Origin: Nitrososphaerota archaeon
GTDB taxonomy: Archaea > Thermoproteota > Nitrososphaeria > Nitrososphaerales > Gagatemarchaeaceae
Direction: 5' to 3'
DNA: 32,000 nt
Assembly (NCBI GenBank): GCA_029785195.1
Contig: JAFMAD010000004.1
Coordinates: 69,329 to 101,328 of the forward strand
Below, piece by piece: positions 1-13,067 of the stretch (its first letter is position 1; each line of letters opens with the position of its first letter). A model generated the notes under the pieces. That model had not been told where the DNA came from. It did not search any database and saw only the letters and a list, made by a program, of their open reading frames with translations. A program made the position numbers and the translations under genes.

Positions 1-3000
1 CGAGGGCCTCCTCTCTGTCCTTGTAGAGCTGCGAGAGCATAGGAGCCATCCCTTGCTCCCTATCGGGTCCCAGCCCCTCTCCCACGGCCCAGGACACCAG
101 GGCCCTTGCCCCTGACTCGTCGAGGCCTTCCATGCCATCCCGAAGCAGCAGGGCCAGACGGCCTCTGCCCAATGGGACCACCGAGGGGACCGAGAACGGC
201 CCGTGGTGGTCGCCCAAGGAGTATCGCTGAATCGCCTTGGGGACCTTCCAGACCTCTATCCCATGCATCCAGGAGAGGGCATCTAGGTCGCCCGAATTGA
301 ATGCCACGACCCTGGTGTACACCTCGTTCATTATCGCTTCTATGTCATTGGCCCTCGCTTCGGGTCTTTGCGGGAGGTCGGGATAGGAGACGCCATCCAA
401 GGGCCGCGCCTTCCATCGTGTCGCCAGAGACCTAAGGCTCCCTTGGTGGCGCCCATTCACCGTCGTTATCGCCTGCGGGATTGAAGGGAAGAGCTTGACG
501 AGCGACTGGTTCCCTACGAAAGCCTCCACCGGCATCTTCAGGCTAATCGAGTTCGATTCGCCCACCGGCCACGGCACCGCGTCCATCGCAACGGCCCACC
601 CCTTATCTTCTGCAATCGACAGCAACACCAGGACGGCTTCCGTCTGCTGCGAATCGACTGCCATCCCCTTGACGAGCATGCGCAGGAACCGGCGTGTCGC
701 ATCACCGTCCAGGCGCGAGACCCTGAGGGCTCCAAGCCTCTCCGATGCCGACTGTGCGCCGGTCGTCATCGGGATTACCGCCCAGGCGCCGAGGCTCACG
801 GGTTGGTCGATGACACCTCCGTCGTCCAACAGGACGTCCCCCGGTCTCAGCCAGCTGCCCGCGACGAAGACCACCCTCTTCTCGCCGAAGAGCTCTTTCG
901 CCTCGGGTGGGACCTCCTCCGAGTGGGAGTCTAGCACCTTCCAGATGGCCTCGTAGCTTGCCCTGGACCTCGGCCAGCTCGACCCGTCCGACCTCGCCTT
1001 GTCGGACATCAGGACCAAGGCATCTAGCAGGTCCACCGTCTGCATCCTCGAGGTCGCTCCAAGCGCGTCGAGCAAATCTCTCAACGGAGAGGCTTCGTCG
1101 GGAGATAGCACGAGGAGCCCTATCGAGTCGGGTGGGACCGGGAACGCTTCCGGCTTGGCGACAATCCTGACCTTGGCCCCGTCGTACCATCTTTCACCCC
1201 AGTACATGGCAGGCTTCGCCAGCGCGGACCTCCATCTCTCGCGTTCCTTGAGGGGTAGTTTCCTCAAAGATGCCGACAGGCCAACCAGGAGCGAACCGGG
1301 GGGTTCTCGACCGTTCGCGGCGCACTTGGAGTACACCTCCGTCATCTGTCCTAGGGACGGCGAGATTGCGAGGCCCAGGTACATCGCCTTGGCCCCTCCC
1401 TTGTCGCCTAGCGCTTCGACCTTGGCGCGCACGTCGTCGTCCATCTCATCGAGGTCGACGTATGACGCATTGGTCTGCCCCAGAATCGAGACTTTTTCCG
1501 GCGTGGGAAGCATCGCAAGACCCGGCTGGGCGACGCCGGTGATGCCGACGGGCACCCAATCGACCTCCGCCAGTCCGCCTCGGATGGACTCGAGTTGGTT
1601 GGAGTCGTACTCGACCAGGAGGGTGCCGAAGATGTTCGAGAGCAGGCGTCTGTCCGGAGGACGCTCCCTCGACAGGCCCTTGATTATCTGGACGACCTTG
1701 GCAAGGTCCAGCTGGACCACGGCGCCGAGCGCCTCGAGGGTCGAATTCTTCCATCTCTCCGAATCGAAGTCCGGGCTGAGCTGGTGCAACCCCAAGCTTG
1801 CGAGAATTGGACCTGCACCCCGCGCCATCCTGCCGGCCGGATACCAGTCCCCTTTCGGGTCGTAGAGGCATGGCACCTTGGCCATGTCGTCCGGCTCCAC
1901 TCCCCTCTCCGTCTTCTTCTTGTCGAAGTAGACCTGGATGGCAGCCAGCATGGCCTTCTTCTGGGCCTTGAGGACCTCCTCCTTCTCCACGCCAAGGAAG
2001 TCCCTAAGCATCTTGTGCTCGAAAAGCGATCCTAGCCGGGGCGAGATGAAGCTGCGCACGAAGTTCGTCGGGTCGCCAGGCTTCTCCGCCAAGGCCACTA
2101 TGTCGAGGCGGCTCGCCACCCTACGCTTGTCGGAATCGGAGTAGCCCTTCAAATCGAAGATTCTAATTTTCCGCTGCATCTCCGCTGTCAATCCGGGTAC
2201 GGCGAAGGGCATCACGAAAATCCACTCCCTCCGGTAGTTCTCACCTTCGTGCCCCCGATGATCGCGGACGTCTGGAGGCGGGCCCAACGTCCTGACCCCG
2301 TCCAGCACGAACGGGACGAAGCTCTTGCCTATTGCCTTGTCCAACGCCCACGACTCGTGGGTGACCACCTTGAAGACGAGGCGAGAAATCAACCTGTAAT
2401 CTTCGTCCTTGATGTCCTCGAATCTCTGGGGGTCATCGTGGAACTCGGTGTCTATCCATTGCGGGACCTCGTTGAAGGCCACGTCGTGGCGCCACGAGCC
2501 GTCCCTCTCCAGCTCTGTAATCACTCGTTGGATTTCGGGATGGATTCGACGGGTCGGCGAGAGTATCGAGTCCAACTCCGACAGTTCGGACGGCAGACGT
2601 GGGAATGAACCCATCGTCCGGAAGGTGCCTTCAGCGTCCGGGACCAGGGACAGTCCCCTTAGCGCCTCGCCTCCCTTCGCGGTAAGCGCGTACCTGAGGA
2701 CCGACTCGGTGTTGGGCCTGTCGAGCCGCACAGAGTTCGCGCCTGTCGTCCTTCCGTAGCGCAGCGGGCCCTTCGTCTCGAGCACCTTCCAGGCGTCGAC
2801 GAAGTGTTGTACCCCGAAGCTCACTGCCTCGGCCCTGTCCTTCAGCCAGTGAATCTCGTCGAACTTTGAGGTGAACGCCGCTGGCATAGCCGCCTTTCCG
2901 AGTAGCTCGACCACCCTTCTCTCGACTTCGTTTGAGACGTAGTACGACTGCCGTGGCGGGTGCCACGTCCCATCGCCTGTGACGAGTATGGGTTGGCCGA

Positions 3001-4474
3001 ACAGCCAGTCCCTGAGCTCCTTGCCTTCCTCGACTCCCCATGAGATATCCTCCTTGTCAGGTCGCATCCACTCGCGAATCTCCCCTATGGGGAGGGACTG
3101 GAGCACCAGGGCTTCGGCTTCCGCTGGCATTTGGCCAAGGGACCTGACAGATGCAAGGAAGGCGGGGAACGTGTCCTTGTATAGTCTGGCTATCGAACGC
3201 ATGCATTCTCGGTACCACTCCCCGTTGACCTCGTCGTTCCCTTGGATGTCGACCCCCGTGCGGTTCTCTACAGGGAACAGGTGGGCAGAGAACGCGAACC
3301 TGTTCCGGCCCCTCGAAGGCAGGGGAATGACGCTGTAGAGGTACTGTTTCCTGGCAGGGAAGAGGGGGAATAGGATGTGCACGTGGTTCTTCTTTATCGG
3401 CAAATCGGTGGGCCCCTTCTTCAGGTCTATTCGGATCACGCCTCTGCTGCCCCTCAGCAGGAAGAGCGCCTTCCCTTCATCGTCCTTGACCGACGCCGAG
3501 GCCGCGAAGTACCTCTTCGCATCAGGTGTCTGGTAGTCCCACCCGTTGGAGTCGAAGGAGGGCGGGCAGGTGCCTATCTCCACTGCTTCGTGTGGGTCCC
3601 AGCGGTACCACGTCTTCCCTGAGGCCGCCAATCCCTGCTTGACTTCGACGACCCGCGCCTTCTCGAGAGGCATGTTCAGGCCGAAGTCTCTTTCGGCCTG
3701 GTACGCTTCAGGGCGGTTGTCAGCGTTCCAGACGATTCGAATCGCCTTGAGCCTCTGGCAGCACAAGAGGACGTCGCAGAGGTAGCCCTTCAGGTCGTTG
3801 TAGAACGACCTCACGTCCTCAGGGCCCCATCGAGGGAAGTCCTTGGCCGCGAAGGGCCTTTCCCGCGCACCAATCACCTCCTTCGCGGCCGTCTCGTCTC
3901 GCCAGGGGAGCCTGAAGAGCACACCCTTCGCCTTCTCGTCTTTGCTTCCCGCGTACGGGGAGTGGAGATGTCCCTCCAGGTTGTTCCACTCCATGCTGAG
4001 CGGGTTCAGGGCCCTGGAGACGACGTTCGAGTGCACCTCCGGGTGGTTCGTGATTGCGTACACCGTCTGGAACCCGCTCCCGAAGTGGCCGGTCGATTCC
4101 AAGTCGTATTCCTTGAAGCGCTTGAGGACCCTCGACGACCTGTCGAAGTCGCACCCCTCATATGACCCCTTTGGCCCGATGGTCGTGAAGGCCCTCCCGT
4201 TGTTTGCGATGTAGAGGGCGTCCTTCTCGAACCTGAGTACCAGAATAGTCGCCCCGGCGTCGTCTGCGTTCTGCACCAGTTCCCGGATGACGAACTTGCT
4301 CCTGTCCTCGTCCTCCGTCCGCGTGACAGCTATCCTCGTCTTGATCCAGTCGAGGAAGTTCAGCGAGTAGCCCTTGTCCATGTCGTCCTGGCACATCCAC
4401 CTGCCATCGGGCGCGGTAACTTCGTCAGGGAAGGGTGGCTCTTTCCCGCAAACGACACACACGACCTTTGCCAA
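1..4474 (-). CDS. Giant sacsin-like GHKL (Bergerat-fold) ATPase with an N-terminal Cys-rich zinc-ribbon-like segment. Partial: the C-terminus lies beyond the window start.
   Basis: My own reverse-strand translation from TTG 4474-4472 has no stop down to base 2 (1491 codons). That TTG lies 2 nt after the helicase TAG stop at 4479-4477. The ORF is absent from the supplied track, presumably because it has no stop inside the window. Motifs read: CVVCGKE..(18)..WMCQDD; FVIRELVQNADDAGA (ExxxNxxD N-box); STGHFGSGFQTVYAITNHP (Gly-rich ATP-lid box); YSVIPLPSRGRNRFAFSAHLFPVENRTG...EWYRECMRSIARLY (resembles the sacsin repeat region). The start is uncertain: GTG 4462 or downstream ATGs are alternatives. 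Confidence 0.85.
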   Translation of the reverse strand, partial: MAKVVCVVCGKEPPFPDEVTAPDGRWMCQDDMDKGYSLNFLDWIKTRIAVTRTEDEDRSKFVIRELVQNADDAGATILVLRFEKDALYIANNGRAFTTIGPKGSYEGCDFDRSSRVLKRFKEYDLESTGHFGSGFQTVYAITNHPEVHSNVVSRALNPLSMEWNNLEGHLHSPYAGSKDEKAKGVLFRLPWRDETAAKEVIGARERPFAAKDFPRWGPEDVRSFYNDLKGYLCDVLLCCQRLKAIRIVWNADNRPEAYQAERDFGLNMPLEKARVVEVKQGLAASGKTWYRWDPHEAVEIGTCPPSFDSNGWDYQTPDAKRYFAASASVKDDEGKALFLLRGSRGVIRIDLKKGPTDLPIKKNHVHILFPLFPARKQYLYSVIPLPSRGRNRFAFSAHLFPVENRTGVDIQGNDEVNGEWYRECMRSIARLYKDTFPAFLASVRSLGQMPAEAEALVLQSLPIGEIREWMRPDKEDISWGVEEGKELRDWLFGQPILVTGDGTWHPPRQSYYVSNEVERRVVELLGKAAMPAAFTSKFDEIHWLKDRAEAVSFGVQHFVDAWKVLETKGPLRYGRTTGANSVRLDRPNTESVLRYALTAKGGEALRGLSLVPDAEGTFRTMGSFPRLPSELSELDSILSPTRRIHPEIQRVITELERDGSWRHDVAFNEVPQWIDTEFHDDPQRFEDIKDEDYRLISRLVFKVVTHESWALDKAIGKSFVPFVLDGVRTLGPPPDVRDHRGHEGENYRREWIFVMPFAVPGLTAEMQRKIRIFDLKGYSDSDKRRVASRLDIVALAEKPGDPTNFVRSFISPRLGSLFEHKMLRDFLGVEKEEVLKAQKKAMLAAIQVYFDKKKTERGVEPDDMAKVPCLYDPKGDWYPAGRMARGAGPILASLGLHQLSPDFDSERWKNSTLEALGAVVQLDLAKVVQIIKGLSRERPPDRRLLSNIFGTLLVEYDSNQLESIRGGLAEVDWVPVGITGVAQPGLAMLPTPEKVSILGQTNASYVDLDEMDDDVRAKVEALGDKGGAKAMYLGLAISPSLGQMTEVYSKCAANGREPPGSLLVGLSASLRKLPLKERERWRSALAKPAMYWGERWYDGAKVRIVAKPEAFPVPPDSIGLLVLSPDEASPLRDLLDALGATSRMQTVDLLDALVLMSDKARSDGSSWPRSRASYEAIWKVLDSHSEEVPPEAKELFGEKRVVFVAGSWLRPGDVLLDDGGVIDQPVSLGAWAVIPMTTGAQSASERLGALRVSRLDGDATRRFLRMLVKGMAVDSQQTEAVLVLLSIAEDKGWAVAMDAVPWPVGESNSISLKMPVEAFVGNQSLVKLFPSIPQAITTVNGRHQGSLRSLATRWKARPLDGVSYPDLPQRPEARANDIEAIMNEVYTRVVAFNSGDLDALSWMHGIEVWKVPKAIQRYSLGDHHGPFSVPSVVPLGRGRLALLLRDGMEGLDESGARALVSWAVGEGLGPDREQGMAPMLSQLYKDREEAL

Positions 4475-4476
4475 GT

Positions 4477-7278
4477 CTAGGAGCCTGACCTCTCTGCCGC
4501 GCTCGGGCGGATTGTCGCTATATACTCTAAGGACGCATGCGGTCCCGCCGATTCTTCGGTGTCGTCATGCCCTCCCTTTCTTGTCTTGACCCATCTTTCG
4601 AAGTCGGCCTCCACCTCCGTGCTGACGTGTCGGGGTAGGAGAATCGAAGGCGCGAATCTGAGCGGAGCAGTCTCCAGGGAAGAGACTGTCTCTGCGAGGA
4701 GAGTTCCCGTCAGCTTCTCGGCTCTACCATGGGAGTCGGACCAATACGTGATGTTGGCCTCTGTGCCCAATCGGCCTCTGCAAGAGTACCTACAGATTGT
4801 GACTCCAGAGGTCATCCCGTTCCATTCGAAGCCGAGAGGTTTTCCGCTGTCAGGGGGGTCGTTGAACGAATTCAGCGTCACGACGGAAGCCAGCTTCACG
4901 AGCGGGCTCAACGGCGTCGCGAACAAGCCCTCGCGCGCGGCGTGCTTCGCAAGAGTAATCATCAGTTCCTTGTCCCGGTAGGAAAGGAGCTGTGCCCTGA
5001 CCCGCTCCTCTAGGCCGTGTCCGGTGGCGTCTTTGATGGCTATGACGTCGTCGTCGGCGACGGGCCCGATTACTACGCCCCCTTCGTCTTCGAGGGCGAC
5101 TTTGGCTCTCCCACCAGAGAACACGGAAAGCAGCCGGAGCACTGGCAACCAACTCAACCTTCCGAGGTCGCCCGACCGCTGGGCCCTGAGCGTCCTGGTC
5201 TGCTCGTCGAGTAGGTCCTCCACCCCTGCTAACGGTCCAACTTCGACGAGTTCCTTTTCGGTCGCAGCCCGCCTCTCTTCGACGATTCTGGCTTCTGCTT
5301 CGCCAGTCCCAGTAGCGGCCGACTCGAGTACCGCAGGGGAATCACCGATGGCCCTTGCGAAAATCTCGAGCCTCGTATATAATGTTCCGAGTATGTGTTC
5401 GTCCAAGGAGCCCTCGACGACTAGGTTGTGGATGGAAACCTCCTTCGAAGCCTGTCCTATCCTGTCGATTCTCCCGATGCGCTGCTCCACCCTCTGCGGG
5501 TTGTATGGGAAGTCGTAGTTCGCAAGCGTGTCGGCTGCCTGGATGTCCAACCCTTCGGAAAGGAAGTCGGTCGAAATCAGCACCGCAGGCCCCTCCCAGG
5601 ACTTGAAGGCACTCAGTGTCTCCTCCACCTTGAAGTCGCTGTCGTCGCCAGAAAGCGCGAAGGCCCTCATGCCGTCCAAGTCGCCGAGCCTGCGGGTGAG
5701 GTAGCCCCAAGTGTGCCTCCATTGCGTGAAGACGATTGCCTTGTGGGGCCTCCCATCGGACCGAGGTTCTCTCAGCTGAAGAAGAATCGAGCGCAGCTTC
5801 TCCAGCTTGCTGTCGGTCCTTAGCAGCCCGAACTTGGCGACCAACTCCGAGCATTTCTCCCGGGCCCCGGGCGGGAGGGAGCCTCGGACCACGTGGAAGC
5901 CCTCGGCGTCGTCCCTCTCCTTGACAGAGAGGGGGCTCTCGATTTCATCCCCATGCTGCCAGACGTCGAAGCCCTCCATGCCCCCGTTGAGTAGCTCGAC
6001 CGTCGCGGGCAGGCAGGAGGAGAGCTGCATCCTGTGCACGTGGCTGAAGTGTGATTGCAGCAACGAGTCGACCTCGTGGTACAGGCTCGACTCCGACACT
6101 CTATTCTTCCCTCGATTGCCTGTCCTCGAGCGGGGACGTCTGTTTAGGGCCACCGAGTGGTTGGTCACGACCCGGGTCCGGGACTCCCCTACGTCGCTCC
6201 TGCGAGCCCTCGTCATGATGGCTTCGAATGGGTTCAGAAGGGCCAGTCGTTGGGCGAGGCCGGCCCTCAGGTTATGGGACGATTCGGTACCATAGCTTTC
6301 GAGCAGGGATCCGACTTCGCCGTCGTTGGCACCTTCCGCGAGGGAAATCAGCCTCTCGGTCACGCTAATCCCTAGTGGCCGGCCAGCCAGTACGTCCCGT
6401 ATGGTAGTGTTGACGAGGGCTGCCGAGGATGCGTCCCGGTCGAACTCGGCCTTCTTCACCTCCCTCCCGAAGATGACCTCGAGCACGCGGCGGAGATCGT
6501 CCATCTCGAGATGGACTGGGGTCGCGGAGAGACCCACGGCCGCCTTGGCGATGGCCGATATCTGGAACGCCATCGTCCTCCTCTGAGTGTCCCCGCCCCG
6601 GCCAATCAGGTTGTGGACCTCGTCGATTACCACCAGGTCGATGGACGGCGGCGTGCGTGCCTCGGCTGCGGTGCCTTCCCAATTCGAGTCGTAGGAGACG
6701 ATTGCCCTGAACCCGCCCTTCGTGAACAGCAGTTCCTTGAGCCGTCTGCCGCTCGTTATCTCGAAGTACAGCCCGAACCTGCGCCACAGCTCGTCTCGCC
6801 ACTTCAGTCTCAGGCCGCCAGGGCATAGGACTAGGACCCTGGCCGAAGGCTCCGACGTGAGTTCCTCCACCAGTATGTACGCGGATTCGATGGTCTTGCC
6901 CAGGCCTACTTCGTCTGCGACCAGGATTCTACGCGAAGGCGACCGCAGGTACTTCAGCAGAGGGCGGAACTGGTAGGCGTTGAAATCCACCTTAGCGTCG
7001 AACGCCGCCCACGTCCCGACGGCCTTCGACGACATCCTCGCTACGATTCGCATTAGCCCGTCCCTCGGTGAGGAGATTCCCTCGAGCGCGCAGATTTCGA
7101 GCCCGGACTGCTGCAGGGGTTGTGCCAAGGACGGAGGCAAAGGCTTGACTCTTCTCAGGTGGAAAGTGTCTGCGCGCTCGGCGACGCTATATCCTGTCCC
7201 CGTGACGACGTAGATTGGCCCTTCCTTCCCTTTCGGACACACTAGTCTTCCAATCTTGGAGTCTTCGGGCCCAATCAT
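4477..7278 (-). CDS. SNF2-family (SF2) DNA-dependent ATPase/helicase, 933 aa, with an uncharacterised C-terminal extension of about 280 aa
   Basis: Track ORF. Motif I LVADEVGLGKTIES; motif II DLVVIDEVHNL (DExH); motif III GLSATPV; motifs V/VI LISTDFLSEGLDIQAADTLANYDFPYNPQRVEQRIGRIDRIGQ. I saw no recognisable nuclease or methyltransferase motif in either terminal extension. Confidence 0.93.
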   Translation of the reverse strand: MIGPEDSKIGRLVCPKGKEGPIYVVTGTGYSVAERADTFHLRRVKPLPPSLAQPLQQSGLEICALEGISSPRDGLMRIVARMSSKAVGTWAAFDAKVDFNAYQFRPLLKYLRSPSRRILVADEVGLGKTIESAYILVEELTSEPSARVLVLCPGGLRLKWRDELWRRFGLYFEITSGRRLKELLFTKGGFRAIVSYDSNWEGTAAEARTPPSIDLVVIDEVHNLIGRGGDTQRRTMAFQISAIAKAAVGLSATPVHLEMDDLRRVLEVIFGREVKKAEFDRDASSAALVNTTIRDVLAGRPLGISVTERLISLAEGANDGEVGSLLESYGTESSHNLRAGLAQRLALLNPFEAIMTRARRSDVGESRTRVVTNHSVALNRRPRSRTGNRGKNRVSESSLYHEVDSLLQSHFSHVHRMQLSSCLPATVELLNGGMEGFDVWQHGDEIESPLSVKERDDAEGFHVVRGSLPPGAREKCSELVAKFGLLRTDSKLEKLRSILLQLREPRSDGRPHKAIVFTQWRHTWGYLTRRLGDLDGMRAFALSGDDSDFKVEETLSAFKSWEGPAVLISTDFLSEGLDIQAADTLANYDFPYNPQRVEQRIGRIDRIGQASKEVSIHNLVVEGSLDEHILGTLYTRLEIFARAIGDSPAVLESAATGTGEAEARIVEERRAATEKELVEVGPLAGVEDLLDEQTRTLRAQRSGDLGRLSWLPVLRLLSVFSGGRAKVALEDEGGVVIGPVADDDVIAIKDATGHGLEERVRAQLLSYRDKELMITLAKHAAREGLFATPLSPLVKLASVVTLNSFNDPPDSGKPLGFEWNGMTSGVTICRYSCRGRLGTEANITYWSDSHGRAEKLTGTLLAETVSSLETAPLRFAPSILLPRHVSTEVEADFERWVKTRKGGHDDTEESAGPHASLEYIATIRPSAAERSGS

Positions 7279-7298
7279 CTATCGTGTTGCCGCGCGTC

Positions 7299-7323
7299 GA
7301 ACGGCGCCGTTCTCGATATAAGA
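7299..7323. promoter_or_regulatory. Perfect 14-bp palindrome GAACGGCGCCGTTC (7299-7312) abutting a TATA-like ATATAA (7316-7321), in the divergent intergenic region
   Basis: Read directly. The palindrome equals its own reverse complement. The TATA-like element is about 40 nt upstream of the helicase ATG (7278, minus strand) and about 49 nt upstream of the GTG at 7367 (plus strand). This is consistent with a shared bidirectional archaeal promoter plus operator. Confidence 0.4.
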
Positions 7324-7366
7324 TTGGCAGTGTTCCCGTCGGATTTGTCTGGACAATCCCGAAGGT

Positions 7367-8260
7367 GTGCTGTGTCATGACAGCTCCGTTCGACAAAATC
7401 GCATCAATCTGACGGACGCGTGTTTCACGTTCTTATGTCGCGACCGAAATCCAAAGAGCGTGGCGACATGGCTGGCTGTCGGCCATCCTGACGACTGGCG
7501 GACGGCCAGAGAAAGAGGGATTTGGGGCCTCGCCGAAAGGCACGTCCGACTCTGGCAGGAGACCGCTCCGGGCGACGAAATCGTCTTCTACGCGACATGG
7601 CCCGTGCGAGGGATAATAGGTCACGGGCGGATTGAGTCCAAGTTCAGGTCCGGCGAGACGGTCTGGCCTCGGGAGCTGGCCGAGAACAGGGTGATATGGC
7701 CCTACAGGCTCAGACTCAGAATAGAGTACCTACTTCCGGAGGAGCTGTGGGGGTTCCGGCGCGTTGAATCCGAGCCGGCCAAGAGGAGGGCGCAGGGAGG
7801 GTTCCAACGTCTCGAAGAGAAACTCGCCAGCCGTGTAATCGCCGAGCTGGTTGAGCGAGAAACAAGCCCAGAGTTGACTCCCGTGCTCCAGGGCTTCTTC
7901 CGAAGCGTGCAGAGCGTGCTGGAAGCATCCAGTGGAGCTATCAGATGGCCCGAAGATGAGTTCAGAACTCTCCTTAAAGGCATGACAGAGGTGCTAATGG
8001 ATAATGCGTTCATGATAACCGAGAGAGGCGACCGTTATGGAAGGAGTCATCAAGTGACGCTGCTGGTCATGAAGGAGGTCGAGGTATTCACCTCAGCGGT
8101 CGAAAGGGACTCGAATCAACCGATGAATCCCGAGCTCGTCCGCTCAAGGGCCGGGCAGGCGAAGACCATCAAGGACACGTTAGAGGCGCACCTGAAAATC
8201 CCCTCCTTCCTGAAGGGCGTCTTCGAAATCGTCAATGAACTCCTCAACATGGTCAAATGA
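7367..8260 (+). CDS. EVE/PUA-like (ASCH/EVE superfamily) N-terminal domain protein with an unknown, probably helical C-terminal half of about 160 aa
   Basis: Track ORF. WLAVGHPDDWRTARERGIWGLAERHVRLWQETAPGDEIVFYATWPVRGIIGHGRIESKF...VIWPYRLRLRIEYL follows the pattern of archaeal EVE-domain proteins (W..n.W....g.WG...GD.i.FY....i.G.g.i...yP.R..i). The true start may be the in-frame GTG at 7460 (MATWLAVG...). Confidence 0.65.
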   Translation: MLCHDSSVRQNRINLTDACFTFLCRDRNPKSVATWLAVGHPDDWRTARERGIWGLAERHVRLWQETAPGDEIVFYATWPVRGIIGHGRIESKFRSGETVWPRELAENRVIWPYRLRLRIEYLLPEELWGFRRVESEPAKRRAQGGFQRLEEKLASRVIAELVERETSPELTPVLQGFFRSVQSVLEASSGAIRWPEDEFRTLLKGMTEVLMDNAFMITERGDRYGRSHQVTLLVMKEVEVFTSAVERDSNQPMNPELVRSRAGQAKTIKDTLEAHLKIPSFLKGVFEIVNELLNMVK

Positions 8261-8326
8261 TGGGGACGGTTAGACACTCAGGTCTCTCGAGTCTCCAAGC
8301 CTTAATATTCGAGATTCGAATCACGA

Positions 8327-9652
8327 GTGATGGACTCTGAGCACGAGTGGCTAACGGGTCTCAGGTACGAGGACTTGTGGGCATACATCAAAACACAGAA
8401 GGGGAACAATGAAGCCCAAAGGAGTTACAACGCGGGGATAGGGGCGCTACTAAATGAAATCAACAAAGTCCCGCAATTCAGGGGCAAAATCTCCCCAGAC
8501 GACGTAGATTACGCCTTCAAGGAGGCGCTCGAAAAAATCAAGGAACCTCTGAGTAGGACGGGCAAGAGAAAGCTGGAAGCCATCCTGCGAAAGTGGATGG
8601 GAGTGGAGCGTGACTACGACTTCCACTTTGACTTGGGCTGGCTGATTGGCTTCCCTGTGGGCTTCCAGTTCGGCTATGGAGAGTTGAGGCCCTTCTCCAG
8701 GTTGCCAAGGATGAACAGGCCTTACGTCGAACGGGGCTTTGAGATGGCAGCGGCGAGGCTGAAAACGCCAGCCAGGATTGATTTCGCTCCTAGTGAGGTC
8801 GAACGATGGTTCCTCTGTATAAGACAGCGGACGATTGGATGGCATAACGCGGCAGAGAGAGCAGATTTTCTCGCTACCCGGAGCCTCGCAGCGTACGAGC
8901 TCGTGACTGGAGTCGCAGAAATCGAATCCTGGTCTTTGGCAACTCCTCCTCGCCACGACCTTGTCGTTGTTTGTCACGACAGGAAGCGGACGGGAGGCCG
9001 CTATCACGCTCGCCCACCCCTCCAACTCGTCATTAATTTCCCCGGTTCAGGTTTCGATGAACTGATGAACAAGATGACTAGGCTGATGAGGAATGAGAAC
9101 CGCACCGAAATTGAGAACAGGATAATGGCTGTAGTCGAAATCTTCGCTATGCTCCAGGGAGGGGTGCAACTGGAGGCAAAGTACCTGCTGAAAGTAATCT
9201 CGCTTGAGGCCCTTTTCCTATCTGAGGACGACCGTGACTATCTCGGGTACAGACTGGCCGAAAAGATTGCGTTCCTGCTTGGTGACGACAAGCTCTGGAT
9301 GGCCATAACCTACGAAAGGCTACCACACTTGGGGTTCAGCGGGAATCTGAGAGAACTGGGAGACCAATATATCGACGACAAATTCGCGGAGACCAAGAAG
9401 TCAGACGCGCGGCGCCGTTTGAACAGAGAGGTCGTTAGGCTTTATCGCAAGAGATCGGCATTCGCTCACCAGCAACGAAGGAACTTGGAGAGCCTCATAA
9501 CCCCGTACGATTACGATATGGTCTCATGGTTGCTGAGACTTTCAGTGGTCAAGATGCTTTCCCTTACAGAAAGAGGAGTAACCCACCTCAGGAAGCGGAG
9601 CGACGACGACCCTTCGAGCTTCGACCAACTCGTTGAGAAGCTGAAGTACTGA
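8327..9652 (+). CDS. Hypothetical 441-aa protein with a C-terminal HEPN-like Rx4H motif (Apea/Abi-like arrangement, tentative)
   Basis: Track ORF. The C-terminal region reads VISLEALFLSEDD ... VVRLYRKRSAFAHQQRRN. RSAFAH is an R-x4-H motif, preceded upstream by a conserved-looking acidic helix, as in HEPN RNases. I did not recognise the N-terminal 300 aa. Confidence 0.7.
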   Translation: MMDSEHEWLTGLRYEDLWAYIKTQKGNNEAQRSYNAGIGALLNEINKVPQFRGKISPDDVDYAFKEALEKIKEPLSRTGKRKLEAILRKWMGVERDYDFHFDLGWLIGFPVGFQFGYGELRPFSRLPRMNRPYVERGFEMAAARLKTPARIDFAPSEVERWFLCIRQRTIGWHNAAERADFLATRSLAAYELVTGVAEIESWSLATPPRHDLVVVCHDRKRTGGRYHARPPLQLVINFPGSGFDELMNKMTRLMRNENRTEIENRIMAVVEIFAMLQGGVQLEAKYLLKVISLEALFLSEDDRDYLGYRLAEKIAFLLGDDKLWMAITYERLPHLGFSGNLRELGDQYIDDKFAETKKSDARRRLNREVVRLYRKRSAFAHQQRRNLESLITPYDYDMVSWLLRLSVVKMLSLTERGVTHLRKRSDDDPSSFDQLVEKLKY

Positions 9653-9755
9653 GGAGGATTGCTTCATCGTCAAATCATCGGCGAAGCATGTTCGAAGCGC
9701 GCGGTAGTCAAGCGGTTGAAGGCGGAATGTCTTTTATCATCCAACAGATTCGGCC

Positions 9756-10862
9756 TTGCCTGCTACTTTGTCTGAAACCGATGAGGATTCTGGTTTTCTG
9801 GAGCCGCTTGAGGACGAATTGGAAGACATGCGCAGAGCAGTACGAATCGAGAGCAAGCTGTACTCCTATCCGGCGGACTTCCCCCTGCAAGTCCTCCATG
9901 AGAAGATAGACAGCGGAGAGATAGACTTCCCTCCGTTCCAAAGGAAGTACGTCTGGACAAAGGAGAAGGCGTCCATGCTGATTGACTCTTTCATGCGACG
10001 CCTTCCTGTGCCTCCCGTGTACTTGTTCACCACGTCCAAGGGTACTCTGCTTGTGGTAGACGGCCAACAGAGATTACGAACCATCAAGCGGTTCTTCGAG
10101 GACAGGTGGGAAGACGGTGAGGAATTCGAACTCGTCTTAGCAGACGACAACCCTCTGAACAACAAGCGATTCCAAGACCTCGACGAAGCAGATCAGAAGA
10201 AGCTCAAGAATGCTGTGATGAGATCCATGGTGATAGAGCCCAAGTCCGGCAGATATGACAATGCGATGTACGACATCTTCGAGAGGTTGAACACGGGTGG
10301 GATGCTCCTGATGCCTCAGGAAATCAGGAACTGCGTGTACCACGGAGCCTTGAATGACTCGATTATCAGACTAAACAGACTGGCTGATTGGAGGACTATA
10401 GTCGGCACCGCAGAGGAGGACAAGCGCCTCAGAGACGTCGAGCTCATTCTGAGAGGGGTGGCCCTGTCGAATCTGGGGAAGGACATCGGCCCCGAACCTC
10501 CTTTGAGGTATAAACCATCCATGAAACAATTCCTCAACGACTTCATGAAGACTATGCAGGATCCGAGCAAGGAATGGGTTGGTGACATGGAATCGACTTT
10601 TACGACGACTGCTCGGCTTATTGTCAAGACTTTGGGTGAAACGCCGTTTCATGTCACACGAGCGATGAGGGCGCCCACATACGACGCTGTGTTCGTCGCC
10701 TTCGCCAAGCACCCCGAATCAATCCCCCCGGATATCAAGGAAAGGTACGAACTGCTTAAGGCAGATGCCGATTTCAAGAAGTATACCGAAGAGCGTCCAA
10801 CCGGTGCGAAGAGTGTCAATGGACGGCTCGACCTAGCGGAGAAAGTGCTTTTTGGGGGATAG
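9756..10862 (+). CDS. DUF262 (ParB/Srx-like, GmrSD N-terminal type) protein without a DUF1524/HNH nuclease domain
   Basis: Track ORF. IDFPPFQRKYVWTKEKASMLIDSFMRRLPVPPVYLF...LLVVDGQQRLRTIKRFF carries the FQRxxVW and DGQQR signature motifs. The C-terminal 170 aa has no H..N..H-type nuclease motif. The TTG start at 9756 is uncertain. Confidence 0.88.
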   Translation: MPATLSETDEDSGFLEPLEDELEDMRRAVRIESKLYSYPADFPLQVLHEKIDSGEIDFPPFQRKYVWTKEKASMLIDSFMRRLPVPPVYLFTTSKGTLLVVDGQQRLRTIKRFFEDRWEDGEEFELVLADDNPLNNKRFQDLDEADQKKLKNAVMRSMVIEPKSGRYDNAMYDIFERLNTGGMLLMPQEIRNCVYHGALNDSIIRLNRLADWRTIVGTAEEDKRLRDVELILRGVALSNLGKDIGPEPPLRYKPSMKQFLNDFMKTMQDPSKEWVGDMESTFTTTARLIVKTLGETPFHVTRAMRAPTYDAVFVAFAKHPESIPPDIKERYELLKADADFKKYTEERPTGAKSVNGRLDLAEKVLFGG

Positions 10863-10864
10863 CG

Positions 10865-11356
10865 ATGCCCTTCAGCGACGTGACGGACCGGCTCAACGAA
10901 GACAGCTTGGTCCTCGACATGCTCCGGAGAAGCAGGATCGACCTACGAACTATCTCGAAACTCGAGAACATGATGGTAAGAGACCTGCTTATCGTCATGT
11001 ACACGACCTACCAAGAACACGTGGTCGAGGTGGTGCTGAAGAAGGTGAAACGCCACAGCGATAATCACGAAGCCATTGTGAACTTCGTCCGGCGCAAGAT
11101 TGAGGAAACCAACATCGACACCTTCGCTTTGAAGAAGCTGCTGAAGCAACTACTTCCGAGTTATGCGTCAAACTTCGAGTTCGCATTGAAAGACAGAGAG
11201 ACCACTTCCGCTTACATGAACATAATCACAGGGAGAATAGATGTAGCTCATCACCAGGGGAACAACCTCCAGATTGGTTCCCTCGTCGAAATCGCAGAAG
11301 CTCACGTCCATGCTCAACGATTGCTACAATCATTCGAGAGTTGCATGTATGCATGA
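10865..11356 (+). CDS. Small (163 aa) HEPN-like protein with an Rx4H motif, of the kind associated with DUF262 (MAE_28990/MAE_18760-like, tentative)
   Basis: Track ORF. Its ATG lies 2 nt after the DUF262 stop, so the pair is tightly coupled. NIITGRIDVAHHQGN contains R-IDVA-H (Rx4H) in the C-terminal third of an all-helical-looking protein. Confidence 0.65.
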   Translation: MPFSDVTDRLNEDSLVLDMLRRSRIDLRTISKLENMMVRDLLIVMYTTYQEHVVEVVLKKVKRHSDNHEAIVNFVRRKIEETNIDTFALKKLLKQLLPSYASNFEFALKDRETTSAYMNIITGRIDVAHHQGNNLQIGSLVEIAEAHVHAQRLLQSFESCMYA

Positions 11357-11441
11357 TTCGCATGCTGGATTCTGTGTTCCATCTCAATCGTCGGGTTCGG
11401 GTACGTACCATTAAGTAAGTAGCCTGCCGCCAGTTTGAGAA

Positions 11442-12143
11442 TTGGAATTTCAAAGGATAGATGACATCCAGGCAAGCACCGTGAAGGTATCCAGCGATGC
11501 GGGGGAAGGAAGCGGTGTGCTTCTCGGAAAAAGTGGGCATGTAGCTACTTGTGCCCATGTCGTAGGAGAGAACAAGAAGGGTGAAATCCTATGGTTCGGC
11601 GCCCCCGACCTCAACACAGCTTACCAAGTCGAAGCAATCGACGAGGAATGGGATGTCGCTGTCCTCAGAACGGACCCCAACCTGTTCGAGCAACTGAATG
11701 GGACCGTCAAGGTCAATCCGCTAACTTTCGTCACAACCAGGGGTGAAATCAAAGCAGGAATGGTAATCGGTATCTGTGGCTATCCGTGGGTGACAGGATT
11801 GCGCGAGAAGCCGGACATATCTAGGCATCCTCCTTCGATTACACTTGGAATCGTATCCCTTTGGCGAGGCGAACTCAGCGAGACAATCATGCTCGGCGCG
11901 AATCTTCACCAGGGAAATAGCGGCGGTCCGGTGTTTAACGAATTCGGTCTGGTTCTGGGGCTTGCTTCGCAGAGCACGGTGTACAAGAAGGAGGAGATTG
12001 GAAGCGTGCTTTCGATGGGTTTGCCGCTGGGCTACGGCGAAATGGTCCCGATGCAATTGGTAAACATCCTGATAGTGAGGGAGAGGCTCAAGGTCGAGTG
12101 GACCCCAACGAGTCGGATAGGTAGTCATTTCAGCAAATCGTAG
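11442..12143 (+). CDS. Trypsin-like (chymotrypsin-fold, Trypsin_2/DegP-protease-domain type) serine protease with no signal peptide and no PDZ domain
   Basis: Track ORF. Triad contexts: GSGVLLGKSGHVATCAHVV (His), WDVAVLRT (Asp), HQGNSGGPVFNEFGLVLGL (Ser). The N-terminus MEFQRIDDIQASTVKV is not hydrophobic. Confidence 0.85.
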   Translation: MEFQRIDDIQASTVKVSSDAGEGSGVLLGKSGHVATCAHVVGENKKGEILWFGAPDLNTAYQVEAIDEEWDVAVLRTDPNLFEQLNGTVKVNPLTFVTTRGEIKAGMVIGICGYPWVTGLREKPDISRHPPSITLGIVSLWRGELSETIMLGANLHQGNSGGPVFNEFGLVLGLASQSTVYKKEEIGSVLSMGLPLGYGEMVPMQLVNILIVRERLKVEWTPTSRIGSHFSKS

Positions 12144-12166
12144 TGCTAGATTACCTTCATCGCAGG

Positions 12167-12586
12167 TTACCCTTGCACCAAGGGCCTCCCAAATATCTTG
12201 CTTTGGTGCCACATGAGGAACCTCTTCGCAGGTGCCCCTTTCCCTAGCTTCCTGAAACTCAGAGTGACCAATCTAACCTGTCTCAGGGTCGCCGGGGTGA
12301 AGGCCTTTCGGCAATAACTCACCCGGTAAGACGGGTACTCTAAGGTGATGAATCCCTCCCCGAAAAGGTTGTCATGAAGGGAACACATGAGGATGACATT
12401 CTCGTCCTGTCCTCGCTCCTTCTCACCTTTTGCCCAGCCCTTGATATGGCCGGCTATCAGGAGCGGTGGGGAATCTATTTTGCAGAGTGCACATTGGGTG
12501 CCATAACGAACAAGGGCACGTCTCCTAATTTCTCTCCTAGGACTGTTTTCGGTCCGAGTCCCGTCGGAATCGAGTCTGACTCGTTC
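12167..12586 (-). pseudogene. HNH endonuclease (HNH_2-like, of the kind found in type IV restriction proteins), 5'-truncated remnant
   Basis: My translation of the stop-to-stop frame reads ...RRRALVRYGTQCALCKIDSPPLLIAGHIKGWAKGEKERGQDENVILMCSLHDNLFGEGFITLE... This gives CxxC, then the HI and N motifs, then LHDNLF. There is no ATG, GTG or TTG between the upstream in-frame TAG (12589-12587) and the CxxC. The first canonical start (12388, the track's 73-aa ORF) falls after the first catalytic His. Confidence 0.5.
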
Positions 12587-12720
12587 CTAACCTGACAGCG
12601 GACTAGCGTTCAACCCCGACTTGCGTCTGCGGCAATCAAAGCTTGGTTGTCGATTCGAATCGCAAAGTTCTCCGGAATCGTCATTAGTTGTGCGATTGTT
12701 CGGCTTTTGCCTTATGCGAA

Positions 12721-12756
12721 TCGGATTTGAACCCACCTAGGTAGTGATAAATCCGA
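12721..12756. repeat. 36-bp imperfect palindrome: 8-bp outer arms TCGGATTT/AAATCCGA around a central ACCTAGGT
   Basis: Read directly. Arms at 12721-12728 and 12749-12756 share a centre with the CCTAGG core (12736-12741). 13 of 18 half-site positions are symmetric. It lies in a gene-poor stretch of about 470 bp (12596-13067) between the island and the core genes. Confidence 0.5.
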
Positions 12757-13067
12757 CCCGCAGCAAGCGGTCAACGTTCGGAGAGGCGGCTTTGTGTGCC
12801 GCAACGGGGAGCGGTTCGCAGACAGACCACAGTTCGACGACCAACTCAAGCAGCGTCCGGGCAAACTCGCCGTACGCGATTGCTGTAATAGGGCACTTCC
12901 AAAGGGGTCATCGAAGGTCGATGAAAACGGCACCTTCGCTTCGACAAAAGAACGCGCTGACAACGACGTGCCTTCTCCCAACACGTGTTGACTAGACTAG
13001 CTTTGTCTTCCCAAGTCTCACGCCTAATCCCAAGACAATCCGCGCCTCCGATCCTATTCGACTCATC

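Follow-up and report, generated by a model that had tools for sequence, protein, structure and literature searches.

The region described here lies in a 32,000-nucleotide stretch of DNA (hereafter the window, in whose coordinates positions are given) from a Nitrososphaerota archaeon of the Gagatemarchaeaceae (assembly GCA_029785195.1, contig JAFMAD010000004.1, forward-strand positions 69,329 to 101,328). It carries five consecutive plus-strand open reading frames (ORFs), designated g1 to g5, whose order, strand and intergenic gaps of 66, 103, 2 and 85 nucleotides (nt) were confirmed (Table 1). Judged by homology, each of the five is a real gene. The initial annotation had combined an EVE-like reader of modified bases (g1), a HEPN-like protein (g2), a DUF262 protein (g3), a mini-HEPN (g4) and a trypsin-like protease (g5) into one modification-sensing, RNA-targeting system. 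The locus is instead probably a defence island, the core of which is a new, divergent archaeal pair of the PD-T4-2 type, g3–g4, flanked by poorly characterised solo genes.

Table 1 Coordinates of the genes, motifs and promoter-like elements of the g1–g5 region and of its flanks.
Feature	Position	Strand	Remark
Giant sacsin/Tiamat-like HATPase protein (context only)	<1-4462	-	Pfam SACS 6e-12; PADLOC TmtA 1.7e-24
DrmD-like SNF2 helicase, divergent from g1-g5 (context only)	4477-7278	-	PADLOC DrmD 1.1e-66; NCBIfam DISARM_DrmD 6.9e-73 (below its cut-off)
g1 ORF	7367-8260	+	probable start 7460, 266 amino acids (aa)
Weaker TATA-like box	7429-7436	+	27 nt before g1 start 7460
g1 N-terminal EVE/UPF0310 (PUA-like) domain	7460-7849	+	Pfam EVE PF01878, NCBIfam and PDB matches
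g1 orphan helical C-terminal region	7850-8257	+	~135 aa
TATA-like box TTAATATT	8302-8309	+	~24 nt upstream of g2 ATG at 8330
g2 ORF	8327-9652	+	441 aa
g2 invariant Rx4H (R376-H381)	9452-9469	+	C-terminal domain
TATA-like box TCTTTTAT	9730-9737	+	22 nt upstream of g3 start
g3 ORF	9756-10862	+	368 aa
g3 QRKYVW motif	9939-9956	+	read from translation
g3 DGQQR motif (residues 102-106)	10059-10073	+	read from translation
g3 FERLN motif	10278-10292	+	read from translation
g4 ORF	10865-11356	+	163 aa
g4 Rx4H (R124-H129)	11234-11251	+	aligned with syntenic partners
TATA-like box ATTAAGTA	11410-11417	+	28 nt upstream of g5 start
g5 ORF	11442-12143	+	233 aa
g5 triad H39	11556-11558	+	invariant in 5 sequences
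g5 triad D71	11652-11654	+	invariant in 5 sequences
g5 triad S160	11919-11921	+	invariant in 5 sequences
Called ORF, 73 aa	12167-12388	-	no family match; sole called ORF in 12144-13067

The g3 protein matches the Pfam family GmrSD_N with an E value of 1.1e-28, shows no match to DUF1524 and retains all three DUF262 motifs listed in Table 1, so that its earlier designation as a DUF262 protein with a DGQQR motif is borne out. Two PADLOC models match it over their full length, NsnA (E = 1.4e-59, residues 41–364) and PD-T4-2_A (E = 2.5e-45, positions 56–360 of 363), while the matches to SspE and HEC-05/06 are limited to short DUF262 motifs. The protein is thereby assigned as a predicted ParB-like DUF262 NTPase with a C-terminal region of the NsnA-C/ParBDB type.

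The g4 ORF begins 2 nt past the g3 stop codon. The g4 protein matches a profile built from 21 syntenic partners of g3 homologues (E = 1.3e-5 in a single comparison) with its Rx4H motif in register, and R124, A128 and H129 are invariant over 20 sequences, namely g4 and 19 partners. All 19 of these aligned partners match both PF18735 (HEPN_RiboL-PSP, best E value 5.9e-22) and the PADLOC PD-T4-2_B models. The HEPN superfamily is marked by a conserved Rx4-6H close to the C-terminal end of a helical domain of ~150 aa. The mini-HEPN call stands, g4 being a predicted small HEPN protein of the RiboL-PSP type with its Rx4H in invariant columns. Homologues of g3 were collected by scanning one genome per species together with Joint Genome Institute (JGI) metagenomes, which yielded 64 loci at 27–41% identity, 56 of which extend 480 nt or more beyond the downstream end of the match. 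A partner of ~165 aa that matches the HEPN-partner profile is present in 51 of these 56 loci, and in 48 it is directly adjacent to the g3 homologue on the same strand.

This arrangement corresponds to a published one. PD-T4-2 from E. coli ECOR65 protects against T4, natively and in K-12 (PMC9519451), and is placed among the DUF262 systems that lack DUF1524, with the HEPN family PF18735 as its second domain (PMC10952713); a survey of HEPN proteins had also recorded a 'RiboL-PSP-HEPN' in operon with ParB (PMC3710099). As in the system of Vassallo et al. (2022), g3 and g4 form a two-gene set that is predicted to be translationally coupled and is located in a defence island. The first protein keeps the QRxxxW, DGxQR and FxxxN motifs of the PD-T4-2 A subunit and matches the PD-T4-2_A model over its full length, and the second shares with the B subunit the HEPN size of ~165 aa and an Rx4H in the same alignment column. 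The archaeal pair differs from PD-T4-2 in its host, in the identity of g3 to its bacterial relatives (31–36%), and in g4, which has diverged so far that the PADLOC PD-T4-2_B models do not match it, and which has isoleucine in place of the usual asparagine after the arginine. The view that the gene combination had no described counterpart was therefore not sustained, as g3–g4 has the published PD-T4-2 architecture (PMC9519451, PMC10952713; operon note in PMC3710099).

The other candidate relative of g3–g4 is Menshen, a three-gene association of NsnA, NsnB and NsnC that is told from PD-T4-2 by its conserved neighbours and in which NsnA combines ParB-DUF262 with ParBDB (PMC12065111). The g3 protein is of this NsnA type and NsnA is its best PADLOC match, which would fit a reduced or variant Menshen, with NsnA joined to a substituted effector, rather than a relative of PD-T4-2. 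However, the gene after g3 codes for a 163-aa HEPN-like protein and not for the NsnB ABC-ATPase (AAA_15 + DUF3696), the gene after g4 codes for a trypsin-like protease and not for NsnC (inPIN-like + toxin domain), and neither Pfam nor PADLOC gave an ATPase match or an NsnC match among the five g1–g5 proteins. It is the three-gene association that defines Menshen (PMC12065111). Moreover, the ranking of NsnA above PD-T4-2_A is not diagnostic, because the two models rank in this order also for bacterial DUF262 proteins whose partners are clearly PD-T4-2_B. A variant Menshen is thus highly improbable. The agreement with the PD-T4-2 literature, the absence of NsnB and NsnC and the non-diagnostic NsnA score together lead to the assignment of g3–g4, on sequence criteria, as a divergent archaeal pair of the known PD-T4-2 kind that current finders based on hidden Markov models (HMMs) would overlook. 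GmrSD, BrxU and SspE each use a DUF262 NTPase to recognise modified DNA and to turn on the nuclease attached to it (PMC12065111, PMC10952713). These DUF262–DUF1524 fusions have the DUF262 domain with DGQQR in common with g3, whereas g3 carries no DUF1524 His-Me nuclease and its likely effector is a separate HEPN protein; for this reason the predicted target is RNA and not DNA.

Partners of the PD-T4-2_B type occur in further settings. In Sutcliffiella halmapala (locus L020, positions 9028–10320) such a HEPN domain opens a 430-aa protein that continues into an additional C-terminal region, and the gene sits downstream of a DUF1156 methylase and a PLD-helicase. On the E. coli IncF plasmid CP057779.1 (locus L082, positions 3471–5066) a DUF262 gene is followed, after 1 nt, by the gene of a 180-aa 'hypothetical protein' with the Rx4H sequence SRHAFAH, a partner without a match to the PADLOC PD-T4-2_B models. 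Over 500 plasmid records from Escherichia match g3, most of them over part of the protein only; CP057779.1 is the one record that was inspected. An SNF2 helicase was considered as a further component of the pair and rejected, since the SNF2-type genes found upstream in three bacterial loci belong to unrelated systems (restriction-modification, PLD-helicase and type I restriction).

The remaining three genes do not share this linkage. Profile HMMs of the g5 family, the g2 family and EVE gave zero matches in the 64 g3-homologue loci, and tblastn searches for relatives of g1, g2 and g5 (E <= 1) in the same loci gave none either. In the complete archaeal genome CP066694.1, homologues of g2 and g5 are found ~310 kb apart. 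As a single system the five genes thus fail the co-occurrence test at g1, g2 and g5, with only g3 and g4 travelling together, and the smaller core of DUF262, mini-HEPN and protease that had also been considered fares no better, as the protease does not co-occur in the 64 DUF262-HEPN loci.

The g5 protein matches Trypsin_2 with an E value of 1e-16 and is an S1/HtrA-type serine protease. Its best NCBIfam matches are HtrA/MarP-type proteases and its PADLOC matches are RT-Protease_XI, LmuA and Avs1b. The triad is intact, and neither an N-terminal hydrophobic segment nor an obvious signal peptide was found in the translation, in line with the predicted cytoplasmic trypsin-like protease of the earlier description. 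Four homologues were found, at 47–55% identity, in contexts that comprise a DarT-macro fusion, an integrase or unknown genes; in three of these contexts no DUF262, HEPN or other relative of g1–g4 was present. From these contexts g5 is classed as a solo, stand-alone gene. In CP066694.1 (locus L072, positions 6068–8663) the g5-family protease comes directly after a DarT-macro fusion gene and a DarT-like 221-aa ORF. Two candidate partners of g5 were rejected: the upstream ORF in CP066694.1 is DarT-like and not HEPN, and a convergent 283-aa gene is confined to two close relatives.

The g2 protein belongs to a small family. Its 10 homologues, those carrying a name being archaeal, share with it an Rx4H in which R376 and H381 are invariant across 11 of 11 sequences and the residue following the arginine is polar. 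The protein consists of an α/β N-terminal part and an all-α C-terminal part of ~200 aa, and was modelled by AlphaFold2 (AF2) with a predicted local distance difference test (pLDDT) score of 79 for the whole protein and 85 for the C-terminal domain. In the model, the Rx4H closes a 30-residue helix that is followed by a loop and the last long helix, with shorter helices inserted upstream. In HEPN domains the Rx4-6H terminates the third helix of a four-helix core whose helices 2 and 3 are separated by an insert (PMC3710099), and the motif position in the g2 model corresponds to this helix-3 position. However, g2 found no match in Pfam, PADLOC or NCBIfam, PDB profile searches with g2 alignments were also empty, Foldseek comparisons of the full model and of the C-terminal domain to PDB and BFVD returned noise without a significant match, and a profile-profile alignment (hhalign) of the g2 family to PF18735-type sequences was negative. 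The HEPN call for g2 is therefore upheld in part: the invariant motif and the helix topology agree with it, whereas profile and fold searches lend it no match. By the model, the C-terminal domain is likely, though unproven, to be HEPN-like.

At least six distinct neighbourhoods of g2 homologues were inspected. They contain C5-methylase/Vsr, HNH, Schlafen/AlbA_2, UvrD-PDDEXK and McrB-like AAA_5 genes, and DUF262, small HEPN, EVE and protease genes are absent from them. A conserved partner of g2 was sought and rejected, as the ~290-aa neighbours in loci L026–L028, L080 and several others are unrelated to one another and to g1. In CP066694.1 (locus L029, positions 2309–9266) and in a metagenome contig (locus L076, positions 1–8317) the g2 homologue follows a conserved trio of a ~615-aa protein, a ~300-aa protein and a UvrD-PDDEXK/Cas4-like helicase-nuclease, which may be another uncharacterised system. 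The closest analogues of g2 in layout are ApeA and DARNA/PD-T7-3. Their size is comparable (~440 aa for g2), with one HEPN-like Rx4H domain and a second, non-catalytic domain, and like these single-protein HEPN defences g2 stands alone in defence islands. In g2, as in ApeA, the HEPN-like domain makes up the C-terminal part, whereas DARNA has it at the N-terminus. Nonetheless, g2 belongs to neither family, and neither sequence nor profiles nor fold comparisons gave a match to them or to any other HEPN family. We regard g2 as a candidate for a HEPN defence protein that acts alone, from a small family without annotation.

The start of g1 is probably the GTG at 7460, because the gene callers place it there and the residue encoded at that position is where g1 begins to align with 2p5d and 1wmm, two archaeal UPF0310/EVE proteins. 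The resulting 266-aa protein matches PF01878 (E = 4e-4, just under the cut-off), NCBIfam PRK00809 (E = 1.7e-8) and the PDB entries 2p5d (MJECL36, E = 4.5e-6) and 1wmm (E = 1.6e-3), which supports the EVE-like reader assignment for its N-terminal domain. An exhaustive HMMER search of the representative library with the 266-aa form identified 238 relatives, 137 of them at E <= 1e-10 and several matching PF01878; every one is restricted to residues 1–130. In the same search nothing matched the C-terminal ~135 aa except a fragment of g1 itself. The g1 protein may be a reader of modified bases; its C-terminal domain is an orphan, and g1 is probably an independent gene. It resembles EVE-nuclease type IV restriction enzymes (EVE-HNH VcaM4I; EVE + PD-(D/E)xK) in joining an N-terminal EVE/PUA-like domain to a second domain, of ~135 aa in g1. 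Unlike in those enzymes, this domain is helical, an orphan and devoid of nuclease motifs. About 36 of the EVE relatives (~290 aa, among P0019–P0159) have in common a ~150-aa C-terminal domain with the consensus LDVVW...YVFEVEVSG, which resembles a PD-(D/E)xK nuclease and is without Pfam annotation; the C-terminal region of g1 is unrelated to it. Another relative, P0055 (923 aa), is a natural fusion of an EVE-like N-terminus, DUF262 (GmrSD_N) and a C-terminal Schlafen/AlbA_2 domain (SLFN_AlbA_2).

Some of these genes might have no defence role at all, g5 being a housekeeping protease and g1 a UPF0310-type RNA/DNA-binding protein that happen to lie beside a defence pair. Stand-alone UPF0310/EVE proteins of about 135 aa are common in archaea, and the HtrA/MarP-type matches of g5 agree with this explanation. 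On the other hand, both families are sparse and patchy, with four g5 homologues and an orphan C-terminal domain in g1, and the regions that they occupy are variable, low in GC and full of genes of mobile elements and of defence. We consider such non-defence roles unlikely, but they merit more weight than any of the other alternatives.

TATA-like boxes were located by scanning for 8-mers with at least 7 of 8 positions A/T. Such 8-mers occupy 0.4% of the window positions, and the chance of meeting one in a random 14-position span is 3%. They precede g1 (the weaker box), g2, g3 and g5, and the same scan gave none upstream of g4; the strongest box of the region sits between g1 and g2. The boxes may be archaeal promoters, from which g1, g2, g3–g4 and g5 would be transcribed separately as short-leader or leaderless transcripts. 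A scan for bacterial sigma-70 promoters and terminators was uninformative, these models being bacterial and not applicable to the archaeal host.

The promoter-like elements also bear on the proposal that g1 and g2 form a two-gene modification-dependent module, in which an EVE reader would serve a HEPN-like effector separately from g3–g4. The two genes follow each other on one strand, 66 nt apart, and EVE domains accompany type IV restriction effectors, with ~36 relatives carrying the PD-(D/E)xK-like C-terminal domain. Against this stand the strong box between the two genes, the orphan character of the g1 C-terminal domain, the difference in guanine-plus-cytosine (GC) content (0.58 in g1 and 0.53 in g2) and the neighbourhoods of the g2 homologues, none of which has an EVE neighbour or any conserved partner. 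Such a module is very unlikely.

The GC content of g2–g5 is 0.50–0.53, with 0.61–0.67 at third codon positions (GC3), against 0.60–0.61 and 0.75–0.80 in the flanking genes, and the block therefore resembles acquired DNA; g1 is intermediate. To the left, the block adjoins the DrmD-like SNF2 helicase and the giant Tiamat-like ATPase, which together with the low GC content place it in an island setting. The giant sacsin-type protein, 1655 aa long on the full contig, starts 14 nt downstream of the DrmD-like gene, and its weak matches to TmtA (Tiamat) cover the N-terminal ATPase region only. Helicase and giant protein may together make up a further defence module, of two genes. Positions 12144–13067 (924 nt), where the low-GC block ends on the right, may represent decayed gene remnants or the island boundary. 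To the right of this nearly ORF-free stretch of ~0.9 kb follow housekeeping-type genes (CopD, Rieske, FAD oxidoreductase). A tRNA gene that would mark the island was searched for and none was found.

These observations are best explained by a defence island gained through horizontal transfer. The region would be its right-hand part and comprise four independent units, g1, g2, g3–g4 and g5, and we regard this as probable. Several observations weigh against it. The match of g4 to PF18735 (E = 2.7e-4, 21.3 bits) is below the Pfam cut-off of 28.4, g4 itself has no PADLOC PD-T4-2_B match, and hhalign with g4 as a single sequence gives a low probability. For g3, the score is higher with the NsnA model of Menshen than with PD-T4-2_A, and the nearest relatives found are only 31–36% identical. 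The atypical composition shared by g2–g5 fits joint acquisition. Finally, among the sequences compared, the only close relatives of the locus were near-identical contigs, the same contig recurring in ENA metagenome assemblies, so that a lineage-specific coupling of the genes is possible.

The last two points belong to the interpretation in which all five genes, or at least the DUF262, mini-HEPN and protease genes, constitute one modification-sensing, RNA-targeting system with proteolytic activation. The common strand, the short gaps and the similar atypical GC content of g2–g5 are consistent with it. In addition, trypsin-like proteases are parts of known defence systems, as the PADLOC matches of g5 illustrate, an EVE-DUF262 fusion exists in P0055, and PUA-like sensors occur at the N-termini of NsnA (PMC12065111), which makes a functional link between EVE and DUF262 biologically reasonable. 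However, the 64 DUF262-HEPN loci yielded no protease, EVE or g2-family neighbour, members of the g2 and g5 families are found in other places unaccompanied by the remaining genes, as their separation in CP066694.1 illustrates, and the TATA-like boxes in the gaps suggest separate promoters. The fusion, the NsnA sensors, the defence proteases and the lack of a close relative of the locus among the sequences compared are the reasons for which an integrated multi-gene system retains a small share of the probability, and we judge it quite unlikely. An equally slim chance is given to a related scenario in which the PD-T4-2-type pair recruited its neighbours in this lineage, the protease either serving as an additional effector or activating the HEPN protein, with EVE and/or g2 sensing modified nucleic acid. 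The comparative evidence from sequence all points away from such a recruited circuit; if true, it would unite modification sensing, RNA targeting and a proteolytic step in a system unlike any described.

With four independent units as the preferred reading, a mechanism can be outlined for g3–g4. By analogy with GmrSD, BrxU and SspE, g3 would be the sensor, its DUF262 and ParBDB-like regions binding the DNA of an invader. NTP hydrolysis by g3 would then activate or release the translationally coupled g4. HEPN domains are metal-independent RNases that are dimeric and act through Rx4-6H (PMC3710099; DARNA preprint 10.64898/2026.02.22.705581), and g4 as the RNase effector may cleave RNA (tRNA or mRNA), leading to growth arrest or abortive infection. 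In the literature searched, DNA sensing, activation of a g4-type protein and RNA cleavage were not found reported for PD-T4-2. We infer these sensor and effector roles, the RNA target and the abortive outcome, and likewise any defence role of g1, g2 and g5.

The locus is instructive for the reading of defence islands, where adjacency on the same strand is no evidence of a single system. The archaeal g3–g4 pair would be missed by the finder HMMs, as is the pair on the E. coli IncF plasmid, and the B-subunit models therefore need broadening. The g2 family, with ~11 members that are always in defence-like neighbourhoods, is a cheap candidate for a new archaeal stand-alone HEPN-type defence protein. 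With g3–g4, the PD-T4-2-type module of DUF262 and small-HEPN proteins probably extends into Nitrososphaerota archaea.

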